A DNA stretch of 64,000 nucleotides from the NCBI GenBank assembly GCA_016186485.1, contig JACPLN010000008.1, forward strand, positions 8,673 to 72,672. Direction: 5' to 3'. Shown in pieces: positions 50,717 to 53,685 of this stretch (position 1 is the stretch's first letter; each line of letters opens with the position of its first letter). A model generated the notes under the pieces. That model ran no database searches. It saw only the letters and a list, made by a program, of their open reading frames with translations, and was not told the origin of the DNA. Both the position numbers and the translations under genes were made by a program. This stretch comes from Candidatus Nealsonbacteria bacterium (GTDB lineage: Bacteria > Patescibacteriota > Minisyncoccia > Minisyncoccales > UBA6532).

Positions 50717-51058
50717 TTACCTTGCAGAAAGGCTAGCGGGAATCCAGATCTCCCTTCTGTTAGAACTACAAGCATCCAATACTAATAGTTTCCCTCTTAT
50801 CTTTTTAGCATAATCTTGTAAGGCCGCAGTCGGCGTTCTGCCTTCACCATAAGTGCTAATCAATAATCCATCATCCTCATCTTTTTTGGTCTCAGAATTC
50901 TTAAACTCACAGGTGAATCTATGATCCTGACTTGGAATATTTGGAAAACGCGTGATAACTAAGTCTCTTCCTATAATGTCAGCAAGCTCGCATATATTCA
51001 TCTTATTCGTCTCCCCGTCTCTAATAATGATGTTAGCATTTACATGTTTTTCTGTCAA
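50717..51058 (-). CDS. Hypothetical protein (start uncertain: TTG 51058 or the internal ATG at MNICELAD)
   Basis: 113-aa ORF. The internal ATG has GGGGAG 8 nt upstream. Confidence 0.45.
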   Translation of the reverse strand: MTEKHVNANIIIRDGETNKMNICELADIIGRDLVITRFPNIPSQDHRFTCEFKNSETKKDEDDGLLISTYGEGRTPTAALQDYAKKIRGKLLVLDACSSNRREIWIPASLSAR

Positions 51059-51366
51059 CTCCTACAGAACTCCATAACATGTTGGAAAACAAAACCGCCT
51101 TCTCCTTCGGTTTTATTCAGGACAGGTTGGCGATTTTTCACGGCTTGCGCTGAGTTTGTCGAAGTGCTCCCCAGTTCAACAATTAACCGACTTGTGGTGA
51201 GCCGAATCGAACCAAAGCTTATTTCTATTCTGGAGAACAGGGAGTATATGACGATGTTGAAGGAGAAACTGGCGGAAATTAAGCGGTTTTGCAGGATGCC
51301 AGCCTTAACTTCAGCAAATTAAAAAATGGCTGCCTAGGATATTCCTGACAGCCACTTATAAACATT

Positions 51367-51915
51367 TTATTTTATAGAGAGAACTGGCGTTGTGTACCAT
51401 CCAGGATGAGAGCCATCAAGACATTTAATTTCTATGCCATCGCTAACGCTCAAGTAAATTATAATACAACGAGTAAAATCAAGGGGGTTGCCATCTCGAG
51501 AAACAGTCCTTTCCCCCTTTTGGTTAGCTTCGCCAAACCGATATACCGAATTACGAGTGGTAACGATAATAGCCTTTGTGGGAATTTCTGCCATTTTTTG
51601 AATAAGGGGGTTGGGGATATTGAGAGCAAGATAAATATTAGCGAGCGATCTTCTGTTTTGCGTACCCGCATGCCCTGGCGCGTCAGCACTACCCTTAATA
51701 TCTGGATGTTGATATTGCCAATTACTTTCCCATTCCTTTTCACATTCAATCAAAACTTCGTCAACAGATTTATTGTTTTCATTTGCAAATAGAAAGATAC
51801 TTGCAATCACAATTTGACCGTCTTTAGAAAATCCTCTGTTTAAGAAGTCTTCAATTCGCCTAATCTCACCACTTGTAAAATGAGCTTCCAATTTGACTTT
51901 TATTTCGCTATCCAT
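51367..51915 (-). CDS. Hypothetical protein (~182 aa)
   Basis: AAAGGAGGG precedes two in-frame ATGs. The second (51915) has ideal spacing. No recognised domain. Confidence 0.5.
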   Translation of the reverse strand: MDSEIKVKLEAHFTSGEIRRIEDFLNRGFSKDGQIVIASIFLFANENNKSVDEVLIECEKEWESNWQYQHPDIKGSADAPGHAGTQNRRSLANIYLALNIPNPLIQKMAEIPTKAIIVTTRNSVYRFGEANQKGERTVSRDGNPLDFTRCIIIYLSVSDGIEIKCLDGSHPGWYTTPVLSIK

Positions 51916-51989
51916 TACCATCCCTCCTTTTTAAATTACTATAGCTATACTACAAAATTACAAAGCAAAAAGCAATACTATTCAAAAAA

Positions 51990-52008
51990 GTTCGAGTCCT
52001 GCCCCGGG
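51990..52008 (+). repeat. Inverted, diverged copy of the tRNA-Asn 3' end
   Basis: GTTCGAGTCCTGCCCCGGG on the plus strand against GTTCGAATCCTGCCCGCGG in tRNA-Asn on the minus strand, about 60 bp away. Confidence 0.5.
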
Positions 52009-52068
52009 TAAGTCAAAATTCCGCCAAAATAGCGGAATTTTTAAGCTAAAGTTAGACTAAAATGGTTG

Positions 52069-52140
52069 CTCCGCGGGCAGGATTCGAACCTGCAACCTAG
52101 TGCTTAACAGGCACCCGCGCTACCATTGCGCCACCGCGGA
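52069..52140 (-). tRNA. tRNA-Asn (anticodon GUU)
   Basis: Acceptor TCCGCGG/CCGCGGA, D arm GCGC-AATGGTA-GCGC, anticodon stem GGTGC/GCACT with loop CTGTTAA, T arm GCAGG-TTCGAAT-CCTGC. Confidence 0.9.
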
Positions 52141-52144
52141 ATAA

Positions 52145-52390
52145 CTAATTTTTGCCTAAAATTCTTTTAATAAATCTTCTTCCCGCCGCAGATTTAAAAT
52201 ATTTTTCTCTTTTTCTTGCCTCAAGAATATTCAGGAATTCTTCTTTATATATTAACATCCATGGTTTGTATTTTTTAGAAAATTCTGTCTTTCCCGATTT
52301 GTGCTCTTTCATTCTTCTTGCTATATCAGTAGTACTCCCTACGTAAGTTTTTGGATATTCTATACTTTTTAGAATATAAACATAATTCAT
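52145..52390 (-). CDS. Small GIY-YIG nuclease family protein (81 aa)
   Basis: MNYVYILKS...KTYVGSTTDIARRMKEHKSG...YKEEF...EARKREKYFK carries the GIY/YIG, R and E motifs. The start is trimmed to 52390 because the upstream 20 codons translate the tRNA fragment and hairpin. The stop lies 4 nt from the tRNA-Asn 5' end. Confidence 0.75.
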   Translation of the reverse strand: MNYVYILKSIEYPKTYVGSTTDIARRMKEHKSGKTEFSKKYKPWMLIYKEEFLNILEARKREKYFKSAAGRRFIKRILGKN

Positions 52391-52396
52391 AAAAGA

Positions 52397-52464
52397 CCCC
52401 GCGCTACCCGCCTCGACTCGCTGAAGCGAGCCTTCGGCGAGGCGGGCCATTGCGCCACCGCGGA
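52397..52464 (-). pseudogene. Duplicated tRNA-Asn 5' fragment (nt 1-27) interrupted in the D loop by a 40-nt GC-rich palindrome
   Basis: 52447-52466 is identical to 52123-52142 (CCATTGCGCCACCGCGGAAT). 52398-52408 is identical to 52114-52124 (CCCGCGCTACC). The insert at 52407-52446 is CCCGCCTCG...CGAGGCGGG. Confidence 0.75.
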
Positions 52465-52497
52465 ATGTATCTTATTTTACAAATTTTTAATGAAAAA

Positions 52498-53685
52498 TCA
52501 ATACCCCTTGAGCTTCTTTAGGCCGCGGTGATCCCTGATTCTGTCTAGGGCCTTGGCTTCAATTTGGCGGATTCTTTCTCTGGTCACCCCGAAAACTTGG
52601 CCCACCTCTTCCAGGGTATGGGTAATTCCGTCTTCTAGGCCAAAACGCATTGAAAGAATCTTCTGCTCTTTTGGAGTTAAGTCAAAGAGAATTTCCTTTA
52701 GTCTCCCCCTCAAAAGAGATCTTGCCGCATCAAGAGATGGAGCGGTAATTTTTTCATCCGCTATAAACTCGGCTAAAACGCTGTCTTCTTTATCCTCGCC
52801 AACCGGGGTTTCCAAAGAAACGGTTTCCTGGGAAATCTGCATAATGTGCCTAACCTTTTCTACGTCAAGCTCCATTTCTGACGCTATTTCTTCCGGAAGG
52901 GGTTCCCTGCCTAAATCCTGCAGAAGTCTTCTCCGAACCTGAGTGTATTTTGAAATTGTTTCTACCATGTGCACGGGAATCCTAATCGTTCTTGCCTGAT
53001 CTGCCAGGGCTCTGGTTATAGCTTGCCTTATCCACCAAGTGGCATAAGTAGAAAACTTATATCCCCTCCTCCAATCAAACTTTTCCACCGCCCTGAATAA
53101 TCCCAGGTTTCCTTCCTGTATTAAATCCAACAAGGTCAAATTGGGAGACCTGCCGACGTATTTCTTAGCGATAGAAACAACAAGCCTTAGGTTTGCCTGA
53201 GCAAGCTTCTTTTTCGCTTCTTCGTCGCCTTTCTCTATTTTTTTTGCAAGCTCTTTTTCTTGATCTGCGGTCAAAAATGCGGTTTTGCCGATTTCTTTCA
53301 AATACATCTGAACTGGATCCGGATGCGCTTCTGCCGGGACTTCCAAATAACGCGATGTTTCTCCAGGCTTTTTTTCAGGAGTCCCCAGAAGCTCTACCGA
53401 TTCTTTTACTTCTATCCCCCGCTTTTCCAATTCCTGATAAAGCGAGTCAAGCCCCCTGACATCGTTTTCAATATTTGGGAAAAAATAAAGAATTTCTGAA
53501 TAGGTGACAAACCCGCGAGATTCCCCTTTTTTAATCAAAGACTCTATATCGTCCAAAGAGAAAACTGGGCCCTTGCCTCGCCTGGGCCTTATCTTCTTTG
53601 CTCTTTTGGAAAACCTCCTTTTTCTAATGGGATTTGTCTTCCCTTTTTTTCTAATTTTTAGCTTCTTTTTCTTCTTTTTTGGCAT
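52498..53685 (-). CDS. rpoD: RNA polymerase primary sigma factor
   Basis: Region 2 ([13 protein letters not shown]), region 3, and region 4 ([24 protein letters not shown]). K/R-rich N-terminal tail. Confidence 0.95.

Follow-up and report, generated by a model that had tools for sequence, protein, structure and literature searches.

A 324-bp unit with a GIY-YIG nuclease gene inside a tRNA-Asn gene of Candidatus Nealsonbacteria, a probable miniature selfish cassette

In the window, i.e. the whole stretch of 64,000 nucleotides of Candidatus Nealsonbacteria DNA that was analysed, a tRNA-Asn gene is accompanied by a partial duplicate of its own 5' end, a bulged palindrome and a gene for an 81-aa GIY-YIG protein. 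On balance we think that a miniature selfish cassette occupies 52123-52446, within the 5' part of the tRNA-Asn transcription unit, and that it rebuilds the gene which it splits; it probably spreads by nuclease-triggered recombination.

The cassette belongs to a large family, in which lineages are tied to particular tRNA isotypes. The design recurs at many tRNA genes in several bacterial phyla and, as far as we could find, appears to be previously undescribed: no description was met in the literature searched, which included the 2006 survey of GIY-YIG proteins (PMC1564403) and the tRNA-fragment paper, and which had subscription-only papers outside its scope.

Layout of the tRNA-Asn locus

Read on the minus strand from 52501 to 52068, the locus consists of a promoter-like site, nt 1-18 of tRNA-Asn, a 40-nt bulged GC palindrome, tRNA nt 19-27, the GIY-YIG ORF and an intact tRNA-Asn (Table 1). 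A sequence-only reading of the same DNA had described the order tRNA fragment, GIY-YIG ORF and intact tRNA-Asn on this strand, and all these elements were found where it had placed them. The exact direct repeats that it listed were recovered by a repeat search as well: one of 20 nt, with copies 324 nt apart, and one of 11 nt, with copies 284 nt apart. A 19-mer of the repeat occurs at two sites only in the window, against 0.01 expected.

Table 1. Features of the tRNA-Asn locus, in window positions.
Feature	Position	Strand	Evidence or remark
rpoD (sigma-70), upstream neighbour, outside the cassette	52498..53685	-	Pfam Sigma70 regions 1.1-4; synteny
Promoter-like site TTGATT-16-TAAAAT	52474..52501	-	overlaps the rpoD stop codon; ends 7 nt 5' of the displaced tRNA piece
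Displaced original tRNA-Asn 5' piece: leader AT + nt 1-18 (ATTCCGCGGTGGCGCAATGG), ending in the D-loop GG	52447..52466	-	exact 20-nt repeat of 52123-52142
Imperfect palindrome, 40 nt, CCCGCCTCG...CGAGGCGGG	52407..52446	-	repeat search, fold
tRNA-Asn nt 19-27 (TAGCGCGGG) as a short copy, inward of the palindrome	52398..52406	-	11-nt repeat if the ambiguous GG is counted
7-nt linker GTCTTTT ahead of the start codon	52391..52397	-	sequence
81-aa GIY-YIG nuclease gene (predicted)	52145..52390	-	Pfam PF01541, E = 5e-16
Cassette-borne replacement copy, leader AT + tRNA nt 1-18, completing a functional tRNA gene	52123..52142	-	exact repeat
Intact tRNA-Asn(GUU), anticodon GTT in DNA	52068..52140	-	ARAGORN; Rfam RF00005, 72.4 bits
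Inserted unit, 324 bp (palindrome, nt 19-27, linker, ORF, replacement nt 1-18)	52123..52446	-	boundaries inferred

The length of the unit equals the start-to-start spacing of the 20-nt repeats. It is also the unit that is tandemly repeated in the arrays of relatives, where the replacement tRNA piece forms the end of the repeat unit, and it is absent from relatives L081-L084 and L086. That the nuclease ORF and a replacement tRNA 5' part make up an inserted unit, as had been proposed from the sequence, is borne out by relatives with an empty rpoD-tRNA-Asn locus and by recurrence at many tRNAs. The insertion had been placed after nt 27, with a length of about 290 bp; it fits better at the palindrome, between nt 18 and 19 (GG/TAG, the slash marking the junction), and the junction of the resulting 324-bp unit is ambiguous by the GG dinucleotide. 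The identity of the short inner tRNA copy stops sharply after nt 27, and the gap between the ORF and the intact tRNA-Asn is 4 nt.

At the window locus the displaced 5' piece takes the position, behind the promoter-like site, that is held by the intact tRNA in relatives. This site is the sole sigma-70-like match within 51900-52600 and, taken alone, does not exceed shuffle expectation. A -10 box lies at an equal distance ahead of tRNA-Asn in relatives with an empty site, and of 46 loci, 28 have a -10-like hexamer (at least 5/6) upstream of the fragment and 13 have one upstream of the intact tRNA. The site is presumed to be the original tRNA-Asn promoter, which would now drive both the cassette and the tRNA.

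The upstream gene rpoD served as a conserved anchor for the comparison with empty sites. When 51000-53500 was searched against Rfam at E <= 1, the tRNA was the sole match, with YrlA, PhotoRC-I and anti-hemB far below threshold. A fragment resembling a tRNA 3' end lies on the plus strand at 51990-52012, 56 nt past tRNA-Asn; its full partner was not found within the window.

Since tRNA genes are classical integration sites, the locus could be viewed as the remnant of an integrase-type island, a view to which the separate 3'-end-like fragment on the other strand lends something. However, it is the 5' end that is duplicated here, the unit is only 324 bp long, and neither a recombinase nor a 3'-end att core is present: the unit has no integrase, and in the 12 kb beyond it, where ten ORFs at 40-51 kb were compared with Pfam, there are no integrase or phage genes. 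An assembly artefact is excluded by the same layout in dozens of independent assemblies, among them L161, L233, L234, L162 and more than 40 GTDB loci. Both explanations are effectively refuted, and the earlier judgement that the footprint is not of the integrase type stands.

Further candidates were rejected on the anatomy of the locus. A group I intron disagrees with an Rfam result of tRNA only, with insertion in the D-loop region and with a tRNA that is contiguous downstream. For a MITE or classical transposon the transposase is absent, and the tRNA is contiguous around the palindrome without target duplication. A REP/RAYT or IS200/IS605 hairpin element has a similar hairpin shape, but the sole ORF here is GIY-YIG and there is no HUH (Y1) transposase. 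Finally, had a circle opened at the palindrome integrated ends-in, the palindrome would have been lost.

The nuclease and its relatives at other tRNA genes

The Pfam GIY-YIG domain (PF01541) covers residues 1-69 of the 81-aa protein (E = 5e-16), and Y5, Y16, G18, R26, H30, E50, E62, K66 and G70 are invariant in 40 homologues. The AF2 model (pLDDT 95) has a beta-beta-alpha-alpha-beta-alpha-alpha core. The only sequence matches in PDB are 1zg2 (E = 6e-5) and 1ywl (E = 3e-4), both UPF0213 proteins. Foldseek ranks UPF0213 1zg2 best, followed by the Slx1 nuclease domain (6seh/7cq3), with TMq 0.65-0.69 and rmsd 1.7-2.7; I-TevI and UvrC reach a TMq of 0.52-0.57, below Slx1/UPF0213. On sequence and modelled fold, the protein is a stand-alone catalytic domain of the Slx1/UPF0213 type and a predicted nuclease. 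Its constant pairing with a bulged palindrome points towards structure-specific cleavage of branched or hairpin DNA as a candidate activity.

All of the protein is catalytic domain, and the modular build of SegB-like homing endonucleases (GIY-YIG domain, linker and DNA-binding domain) is not found in it. The only NCBIfam match is TIGR01453 (group I intron endonuclease), which at 23 bits against a cut-off of 56 is sub-threshold. Since the DNA-binding domain of the classical GIY-YIG enzymes is absent, "homing endonuclease" is used for this protein as an analogy and not as demonstrated membership. The sequence-only reading had seen a homing-endonuclease cassette; the insertion-like unit agrees with this, while the bare Slx1/UPF0213-type domain, without a DNA-binding domain, does not.

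The ORF predicted for the window is longer, 101 aa, starting at an ATG in the D-loop copy (AATGG) and continuing across the palindrome. M-x-[YF]-[VIT]-Y is the beginning of all 40 aligned homologues, and the NCBI entry for the identical protein gives 81 aa, so the 20 extra codons are an artefact, as had been suspected.

Relatives of the protein are encoded at 80 GTDB loci, from CPR/Patescibacteria, Bacteroidota, Ignavibacteria and Planctomycetes MAGs. In 68 of these a same-strand tRNA abuts the ORF, downstream in 56 (-23 to +150 nt) and upstream in 12; of the other 12 loci, most are at a contig end or have a tRNA that contains an intron or was not called. On the far side of the ORF lies a partial copy of the same tRNA, split by the palindrome in the D arm or T loop, with alignment scores of 36-46 against a shuffle maximum of about 25. 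The displaced pieces differ from the host's own tRNA by 8 mismatches in 535 nt, 6 of them from one mis-registered locus. The long repeats differ in length, between about 9 nt and 31 nt or more, while their left end is always the tRNA 5' end; ordinary target-site duplication was rejected as their origin on account of this variable length and fixed left end.

Two arrangements can be distinguished. In type A the ORF is upstream of the tRNA and the palindrome lies within the acceptor/D-arm copy, while in type B the ORF is downstream and the palindrome lies within a T-loop or D-loop copy. In all cases the hairpin is at the outer end relative to the ORF, which is the 5' end for type A and the 3' end for type B. 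Further, the nearest protein neighbour has the same tRNA isotype in 53 of 71 cases, compared with 12.8 expected. Contigs often end at a cassette. In three tRNA-Asn genes (L161, L002 and L066) a group I intron co-occurs with the cassette.

The palindrome, empty sites and arrays

The palindrome has a GC basal stem of 9 bp (CCCGCCTCG/CGAGGCGGG), then a bulge of 6 nt on one side, and an apical stem of 6 bp. As DNA it folds with -15.6 kcal/mol (z = -3.7), and it is single-copy in the 64-kb window (0 expected). The sequence-only reading had treated it as something extra in the D loop; it is instead a conserved hallmark of the family. It adjoins the ORF in at least 60 of the 80 related loci, and all 53 strict matches in 409 kb fall within 170 nt of a GIY ORF, a zone that makes up 13 % of this sequence; control loci of CPR DNA contain 1 strict match in 385 kb. 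The CCCGCC...GGCGGG palindrome divides the partial tRNA copy exactly, with no tRNA bases lost or duplicated. Its orientation relative to the ORF is 18:12, it is inverted between the window and L161 (an 84 % identical relative), and of the bulges 24 are 5' and 20 are 3'. From these patterns we infer that the palindrome acts at the DNA level.

A function in RNA is another candidate. The tRNA piece and hairpin could form a structured leader (a trailer in type B) by which the nuclease mRNA is stabilized or regulated, or by which transcription of rpoD is terminated; selection for expression, and not for mobility, would then maintain the duplication. As RNA, fragment and palindrome fold into a long stem with UCUUUU behind it (-41.7 kcal/mol, z = -2.7), which is in line with this, and so is the constant place of the hairpin at the outer end of the ORF transcript; an inverted palindrome would also still give an RNA hairpin. 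However, the CCCGCC/GGCGGG terminal stem is conserved across phyla while the interior changes strand, and an RNA motif would hold its strand. Neither the wide variation of palindrome position within the tRNA copy nor the lack of an Rfam match fits well, and arrays and empty sites are left unexplained. We regard this explanation as very unlikely, and it is in any case compatible with mobility and not an alternative to it. A role as rpoD terminator in particular was rejected: no T run follows directly, the palindrome flips, and in type B it is downstream of the ORF.

Across relatives the junction is found at nt 7/8, 8/9, about 10, 18/19, about 22 and in the T loop. It differs even at one and the same rpoD-tRNA-Asn locus, being at 18/19 in the window and at 7/8 in L233 and L234, and L233 carries in addition a decayed palindrome remnant at 18/19. 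A search for other nuclease/tRNA junctions with the same breakpoint, which the sequence-only reading had suggested, thus gives a divided answer: junction types recur, but the position varies between relatives. Several or tandem palindromes are seen within one fragment in L043, L048, L058, L021 and L080. In L093 a TIR-bounded insertion in the D loop (CCCGCCCAAATTTTTT / AAAAAATTTAGGCGGG) holds a whole tRNA-Asn and no ORF.

Such variation would be expected if the palindrome itself were the primary mobile entity, a REP- or MITE-like hairpin homing to tRNA-like DNA of the GG/TRG type. The GIY-YIG protein would then be a trans-acting structure-specific nuclease, as for REP/RAYT or IS200-type ends, and the ORF and partial tRNA duplication would be by-products of hairpin-induced breakage and repair. 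The palindrome does appear to move independently of the ORF, it is inserted in both orientations without target duplication, and its conserved basal stem with one-sided bulge resembles recombination hairpins. The multiple palindromes per fragment, the insertion in L093 and a nearest fold, Slx1, that cuts branched DNA can be read in the same way. On the other hand, the palindrome is never away from a GIY ORF in the 409 kb and nearly absent from the control DNA, i.e. it is not a dispersed repeat family, and the window holds one copy. Further, this idea does not in itself account for an ORF that always has the direction of the tRNA and is always flanked by the intact tRNA on one side and the partial copy on the other. 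We consider this account unlikely.

To return to the cassette, it had been suggested that empty and occupied tRNA-Asn loci be compared, and both exist among relatives. With empty sites present and junction types recurring, neither of the comparative grounds that the sequence-only reading had named for giving up a mobile cassette applies. In the closest relatives by rpoD (76, 67, 66, 66 and 62 % identity) an intact tRNA-Asn follows 45-156 nt after rpoD, with no ORF and no palindrome. In total the rpoD-tRNA-Asn locus is empty in L081-L084, L086, L096, L115 and L141 and occupied in the window, L233, L234 and L129. L233 has an rpoD 58 % identical to that of the window and a GIY protein 67 % identical; for L234 the values are 60 % and 70 %. 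By rpoD, these two occupied hosts are more distant from the window than its closest relatives, whose sites are empty. The occupant in L129 is a GIY protein of only 33 % identity. No occupied/empty pair from one species was found, and exact-sequence look-ups of the window rpoD and of the 81-aa protein gave no record. It should be kept in mind that empty sites are not proof of gain, since scar-less loss by recombination between the repeats gives the same presence and absence.

Tandem units, 2-9 in number, are present in 11 loci. The array in L026 has 9 copies that are at least 99.6 % identical, while other arrays consist of divergent units: L044 (75 %), L052 (65 %) and L010, where two different families are combined. 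The sequences of the arrays, some with divergent units, indicate repeated insertion.

These observations also bear on a host function, in which a housekeeping GIY-YIG protein would be co-transcribed with tRNAs, the partial copies would be old duplications kept identical by gene conversion, and there would be loss only and no current mobility. The ORFs are indeed intact and conserved, with catalytic residues invariant over very deep host divergence; lineages follow the tRNA isotype, as old vertical paralogues would; and phage or plasmid vectors were not found. In addition, a function of bacterial Slx1-like proteins on RNA was once considered on account of a TrmH(Gm18)-GIY-YIG fusion (PMC1564403). 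Against this stand the patchy distribution among close relatives at one locus, and the presence at that same locus of an unrelated family member (L129) and of differing junction positions. Divergent units within one array are difficult to explain unless new insertions occur, contigs frequently end at the element, and a pseudo-tRNA split by a palindrome at every copy is needless for a housekeeping gene. Such a domesticated arrangement is, in our view, quite improbable.

Proposed spread and known systems

For the selfish cassette the following course of events can be proposed. A tRNA gene without a cassette would be broken or nicked by the nuclease, in a loop or at a junction (GG/TAG for tRNA-Asn), and recombinational repair would copy the cassette from an occupied gene, with highly conserved tRNA sequence on both sides as homology. 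The replacement nt 1-18 would fuse with the resident nt 19-76, so that the essential tRNA is kept intact, while the old 5' piece would retain the promoter. The nuclease mRNA may thus come from the tRNA promoter, with the tRNA excised from the 3' end of the nuclease transcript. Re-cutting of the intact tRNA in an occupied gene could add extra units and thereby generate tandem arrays. The palindrome would interrupt the target in the displaced copy, which would protect this copy and prevent nuclease-induced deletion between the repeats, and it may also be the structure that is bound by the Slx1-like nuclease.

There are difficulties with this model. Since a DNA-binding domain is absent, it is difficult to see how the protein could home to a specific sequence, unless a partner assists it or the substrate is a structure. 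An occupied gene retains the presumed target in its intact tRNA, so re-cutting would have to be tolerated or the gene protected in some other way. Homing across species would join a donor 5' part to a resident 3' part and so give chimeric tRNAs; the perfect host match of both copies therefore calls either for an extra step, such as gene conversion or selection, or for a mechanism by which the target is duplicated in situ. The short tRNA piece inside the palindrome is without a role in the model.

The lack of vector-type relatives in phage and plasmid collections also counts against it. IMG/VR contains no relative of the 81-aa protein, and tblastn of 50,697 phage records gave no match to it. 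A 15-mer of the palindrome has 70 viral matches, of which just 2 form palindromes; both are in phages of about 68 % GC and are thus ascribed to chance. Among plasmids there are two weak matches only (40 % identity), in rhizobial replicons.

A possible, though doubtful, interpretation is that the palindrome and the bare Slx1-like nuclease represent a class of mobile element not recognised before. Its insertion into loops or junctions of tRNA genes, sites that are maybe recognised as DNA structure, would be driven by a structure-specific nuclease in place of a transposase, recombinase or modular homing endonuclease. By building or carrying a partial duplicate of its target, such an element would allow the essential gene to survive. 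If true, this would be the first function for part of the UPF0213 family; to our knowledge the bacterial UPF0213 proteins, which were structural-genomics targets, have had no function assigned since 2005.

If the selfish-cassette reading holds, the unit of about 320 bp is among the smallest protein-coding selfish elements known in bacteria. It would occupy an essential gene in a new way, using no intron or intein but a partial duplicate that rebuilds the gene, and a promoter borrowed from the tRNA. The reading links the stand-alone bacterial Slx1/UPF0213 nucleases, an orphan family, to a concrete genomic behaviour, and the nuclease and bulged palindrome are a compact pair on which the way of a bare GIY-YIG domain to its substrate could be studied. 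In CPR bacteria, with their single-copy tRNA genes, and in Bacteroidota, tRNA loci are shaped by cassettes, which can accumulate as arrays. Cassettes also matter for annotation and assembly: they break assemblies and create pseudo-tRNA fragments, and gene callers extend the ORF through fragment and palindrome, as for the window, with many database entries of the family looking likewise extended.

Integrase islands and prophages resemble the cassette in that they target a tRNA gene, carry a partial copy, leave the gene intact and have a tRNA fragment at the other end. They differ in duplicating the 3' end via an att core, in being kilobases long and in using a tyrosine or serine recombinase, whereas in the cassette the duplicate is often of the 5' end, the length is about 320 bp, a recombinase is absent and a palindrome sits at the junction. 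REP/RAYT elements, IS200/IS605 ends and integron attC sites share with it DNA hairpins formed by imperfect palindromes with unpaired bases, insertion without target duplication and the possibility of cassette-like tandem arrays. In contrast, these systems depend on HUH enzymes or tyrosine recombinases, while the only enzyme of the cassette is the GIY-YIG nuclease and its palindrome is restricted to tRNA-derived sequence beside the ORF.

The bacterial UPF0213 proteins BH0048 (1zg2) and EF2693 (1ywl) belong to the "Slx1 cluster" of Dunin-Horkawicz et al. 2006 (PMC1564403), a survey in which linkage of UPF0213 to tRNA genes or palindromes is not mentioned. This group contains the best sequence and fold matches of the cassette protein and has the same minimal stand-alone GIY-YIG domain; eukaryotic Slx1 differs by a RING domain and by its dependence on Slx4. 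The structure specificity of Slx1 (flaps, junctions, stem-loops) would fit a palindrome as partner.

The free-standing GIY-YIG homing endonuclease SegB is encoded in the tRNA gene cluster of phages T4/T6, recognises a T-psi-C stem-loop motif of tRNA-gene DNA and is preferentially inherited by homing (PMC2330249; PMC13096335). Its cuts lead to recombination-dependent tandem amplification of the segment with tRNA and segB, SegB homologues are statistically linked to tRNA genes, and SegB has a DNA-binding part, with C-terminal truncation abolishing toxicity (PMC2330249; PMC13096335). Both systems thus place a GIY-YIG nuclease gene among tRNA genes. However, SegB is of phage origin, while the cassette protein, with 81 aa and nothing but a catalytic domain, is a chromosomal member of the Slx1/UPF0213 branch and has no phage matches. 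Further, SegB lies between tRNA genes and the cassette inside one, which it rebuilds with a partial duplicate, and a palindrome is not described for SegB.

Group I introns with homing endonuclease genes occur in tRNA genes, including tRNA-Asn of Patescibacteria (PMC13011429; PMC3984707). Like the cassette, they are selfish insertions that bear an endonuclease and leave the tRNA functional, but they do so by RNA splicing in the anticodon loop, whereas the cassette has no ribozyme and restores the gene at the DNA level by its duplicate. In "fractured genes", a free-standing homing endonuclease gene lies between the halves of a split host gene (PMC2677866). Here too an intron-less homing endonuclease gene sits in a host gene whose function is otherwise rescued; the rescue is by split inteins at the protein level, and in the cassette by partial duplication of an RNA gene.

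The locus and its predicted nuclease

The locus joins a partial tRNA-Asn copy, split by a palindrome, to a short GIY-YIG ORF and a complete tRNA-Asn gene. The two exact repeats of 20 and 11 nt on which the sequence-only reading was built are real; the 19-mer has no further copy in the window, where 0.01 would be expected. The same reading assigned the ORF to the GIY-YIG family and dismissed the first 20 codons of the track ORF, and both hold: a GIY-YIG domain is found, and the homologues as well as an identical NCBI entry, from a Candidatus Nealsonbacteria MAG, all begin at MNYVY. The 101-aa track ORF takes its start codon from the D-loop AATGG, and its reading frame crosses the palindrome.

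Features of the tRNA-Asn locus in the window
Feature	Position	Strand	Remark
rpoD end (stop codon)	52498	-	
Promoter-like site TTGATT-16-TAAAAT	52501-52474	-	
Leader AT and tRNA-Asn nt 1-18	52466-52447	-	
40-nt palindrome CCCGCCTCG...CGAGGCGGG	52446-52407	-	
tRNA nt 19-27	52406-52398	-	
7-nt linker	52397-52391	-	
81-aa ORF	52390-52145	-	GIY-YIG, Pfam E = 5e-16
4-nt gap	52144-52141	-	
Complete tRNA-Asn(GTT)	52140-52068	-	

The fragment lies 33 nt past the rpoD stop codon, the place of the tRNA in relatives. Hence it represents the original 5' end, promoter included, and the 5' part of the intact gene arrived with the cassette or was made with it. We take the cassette to be the 324 bp from the palindrome to nt 18 of the intact tRNA (52123-52446).

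Beyond the tRNA, GTTCGAGTCCTGCCCCGGGTAAG at 51990-52012 on the plus strand resembles a tRNA T-loop and 3' acceptor end, with 18 of its 23 bases equal to the tRNA-Asn 3' part. It is on the strand opposite to tRNA-Asn, 56 nt past the 3' end of that gene, with a hairpin (52015-52041) in between. The window holds no full tRNA partner for this piece, and no integrase or phage genes are present in the next 12 kb. For the duplication at the cassette, an integrase att remnant is excluded.

All 40 aligned homologues have the catalytic residues Y5, Y16, R26, H30 and E62. AlphaFold predicts the fold with confidence (pLDDT 95), and among solved structures it comes closest to UPF0213 BH0048 and the Slx1 nuclease domain (TMq 0.65-0.69, rmsd 1.7-2.7 A), which rank above I-TevI and UvrC; sequence matches in the PDB are to UPF0213 only. 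The protein thus belongs to the Slx1/UPF0213 branch of the GIY-YIG superfamily. Its catalytic domain is the whole 81-aa protein, with no DNA-binding module. A 2006 GIY-YIG survey describes a protein of Erythrobacter in which an Slx1-like domain is fused to TrmH, the tRNA G18 2'-O-methyltransferase (PMC1564403). G18 is in the D-loop GG, beside the palindrome site of the window, and any relation to this fusion may be coincidence.

Among 1.84 billion cluster representatives, 529 clusters match at E <= 1e-10 and 6484 at E <= 1e-3. Representatives with an N-terminal surplus of 20-60 residues are common, and many are 100-146 aa long and match from residue 20-67 (for instance P0121, P0127, P0133, P0140 and P0150). 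We suspect a start-codon artefact as in the window, with the start inside the tRNA fragment or palindrome.

Recurrence of the layout and empty sites

Relatives were sought with the alignment of 40 homologues, taking one genome per species, which gave 80 loci (L-numbers) from CPR/Patescibacteria, Bacteroidota, Ignavibacteria, Planctomycetes and a few MAGs labelled otherwise. In 68 of them ARAGORN finds a same-strand tRNA touching the ORF, either downstream (56 loci; gap -23 to +150 nt, mostly -23 to +14) or upstream (12 loci; gap 18-167 nt). Of the remaining 12, most are truncated at a contig end, some have an intron in the anticodon loop of tRNA-Asn, and in one the tRNA is uncalled. Eight isotypes are involved, namely Asn, Leu, Gln, Arg, Val, Ala, Glu and Met. 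Since the ORF extends into the tRNA (ATT CCG CGG TAG), the C-terminus of many homologues is IPR, IPG or IPA.

When the tRNA is downstream (type A), an exact copy of its 5' end precedes the ORF, with local alignment scores of 36-46 vs a shuffle maximum of about 25. This copy is always split by a GC-rich palindrome of the window's kind, past which the tRNA resumes at the next base, continues for 4-18 nt and stops sharply, with the start codon 0-40 nt further on. When the tRNA is upstream (type B), the ORF is followed by a short T-arm piece, a palindrome in the T loop (GGTTC, palindrome, GATTCC) and the tRNA 3' end; in two type B loci (L078, L019) the trailing copy is split in the D loop instead. 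The general rule is an intact tRNA, a co-oriented ORF and a partial copy in which the tRNA's outer end is retained and the palindrome is present. The same layout in independent assemblies, e.g. L161, excludes an assembly artefact.

In three loci (L161 640-1182, L002 from ~3255, L066 from ~2305) the cassette-bearing tRNA-Asn is also interrupted in its anticodon loop, in L161 by a 105-aa HNH-type ORF followed by structured sequence. A group I intron is known from Patescibacteria tRNA-Asn (PMC13011429), and the L161 insert is probably this intron, in which case two distinct selfish elements would share one tRNA gene. In L040 (2565-3533) a second, decayed tRNA-Gln copy with two palindromes lies directly past the intact tRNA-Gln, followed by a 243-aa ORF whose C-terminus resembles a T5orf172/GIY-YIG-type domain; it may be a larger relative at the same site.

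With rpoD as anchor, 80 metagenome loci were compared. The closest relatives by rpoD identity are L081 (76 %), L082-L084 (66-67 %) and L086 (62 %), then L096, L115 and L141. In all eight, rpoD is followed by 45-156 nt including a -10 box and an intact tRNA-Asn, and neither an ORF nor a palindrome is present. The tRNA 5' half of L084 is identical to that of the window. Such empty sites could also be obtained by scar-less loss. A -10-like hexamer precedes the fragment in 28 of 46 loci and the intact tRNA in 13 of 46, and flavobacterial loci have TAnnTTTG ahead of the fragment.

More distant hosts are occupied at this locus too. L233 (rpoD 58 %, GIY protein 67 % identical) has its palindrome between tRNA nt 7 and 8 and a decayed remnant at 18|19; L234 (rpoD C-terminus 60 %, GIY protein 70 %) also has it at 7|8. 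L129 (760-1120) holds a GIY-YIG protein of only 33 % identity, and its tRNA copy reaches about nt 50, is split by two short, different palindromes (CTGCCTGCCGGCAGGCAGG, TCCCGCTATGGTGGGA) and takes in 5' leader as well, 18 nt as far as the rpoD stop codon. In L093 (3849-4100) the D loop of the old tRNA-Asn is split by an insertion with 16-bp inverted repeats (CCCGCCCAAATTTTTT / AAAAAATTTAGGCGGG, starting CCCGCC) that contains a complete second tRNA-Asn without nuclease ORF, perhaps a version of the cassette that is ancestral or has no ORF.

The palindrome and probable repeated insertion

The loci, 409 kb in all, contain 53 strict palindrome matches, and none is more than 170 nt away from a GIY ORF; this zone makes up 13 % of the sequence. 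Control loci (385 kb, mostly CPR) give one match, which is terminator-like, and the 64-kb window has a single copy. CPR palindromes have CCCGCCTCG...CGAGGCGGG in common, those of Bacteroidota and Planctomycetes CCCGCCCG...CGGGCGGG. As DNA they fold into a basal stem of 8-9 bp, a one-sided bulge of 4-6 nt and an apical stem-loop, and after orienting the interior is also conserved (CGTCGAC ... GCGAGTCGAGG).

Both orientations occur: relative to the ORF they are split 18:12, and the bulge is on the 5' side in 24 cases and on the 3' side in 20. The palindromes of the window and L161, whose proteins are 84 % identical, are mutually reverse-complementary, as are those of L035 and L053. This points to a role at the DNA level, because an RNA motif would keep its strand. 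A function as RNA leader or stabiliser is compatible with mobility and no substitute for it.

The position in the tRNA copy varies (after nt 7, 8, ~10, 18 in the D-loop GG, ~22, or in the T loop); in the tRNA-Asn clade both of the sites used read GG|TAG or GG|TGG. Fragments in L021, L043, L048, L058 and L080 hold two or three palindromes or tandem runs. At L043 (~2680-2790) and L048 (3255-3400) at least three head-to-tail palindromes with a period of ~35-40 nt adjoin the ORF. The palindrome may itself be what primarily moves, served in trans by the nuclease, and its independent moves and multiplication support this; against this reading, it is never seen apart from the ORF in the 409 kb of loci.

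Tandem units, 2-9 per locus, are found in 11 of the 80 loci, in the order palindrome, inner tRNA piece, ORF, outer tRNA piece, and the element is where many contigs stop. The nine units of L026 are at least 99.6 % identical, and the pairs in L073 and in L024 are identical. Divergent units also share one tRNA: 75 % identical in L044, 65 % in L052, and from two different families in L010. The nearest protein neighbour has the same tRNA isotype in 53 of 71 cases (expected 12.8, maximum 26 in 1000 shuffles). Displaced 5' pieces have 8 mismatches in 535 nt to the tRNA of their own host, six from one mis-registered locus, and are otherwise exact; in contrast, the GIY proteins are only 50-65 % identical between hosts. 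That both tRNA copies match the host perfectly calls for gene conversion or duplication in situ. The arrangement may also be a domesticated operon kept by gene conversion. Three observations count against this reading: the distribution is patchy, arrays are divergent, and an unrelated family has invaded the same locus.

Proposed mechanism and known systems

Most likely, the cassette is mobile and resides within the tRNA transcription unit, with the tRNA processed out of a common transcript. Expression would come from the tRNA promoter in type A and by read-through from the tRNA in type B. The nuclease would damage an unoccupied tRNA gene at a loop or junction position, and repair would then copy in the cassette of an occupied gene, with conserved tRNA sequence to either side serving as homology. 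As the target persists in the rebuilt tRNA, further rounds would add units and produce arrays. In the displaced copy the palindrome would destroy the target; if this copy could still be cut, the repeats would anneal and the cassette would be deleted. Possibly the palindrome is also a branched-DNA substrate or binding site of the Slx1-like enzyme. The inner tRNA piece is unexplained by this mechanism, and the protein's lack of a DNA-binding domain is a further weak point.

A precedent is the phage protein SegB, a GIY-YIG endonuclease of the free-standing kind. It recognises T-loop DNA of tRNA genes and homes, and it causes recombination-dependent tandem amplification of a tRNA and segB segment (PMC2330249, PMC13096335). 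The cassette belongs to none of integrase islands, group I introns, MITEs or HUH hairpin elements. The literature searched does not describe a triad of ORF, palindrome and partial tRNA; papers on it could exist beyond that scope. The nuclease-palindrome pair has a real chance of being a new mobility mechanism. By analogy, the cassette would work similarly to a free-standing homing endonuclease gene, for which specific cleavage and gene conversion are decisive; one defining feature of such genes is a modular DNA-binding protein, and the protein of the cassette is without it.
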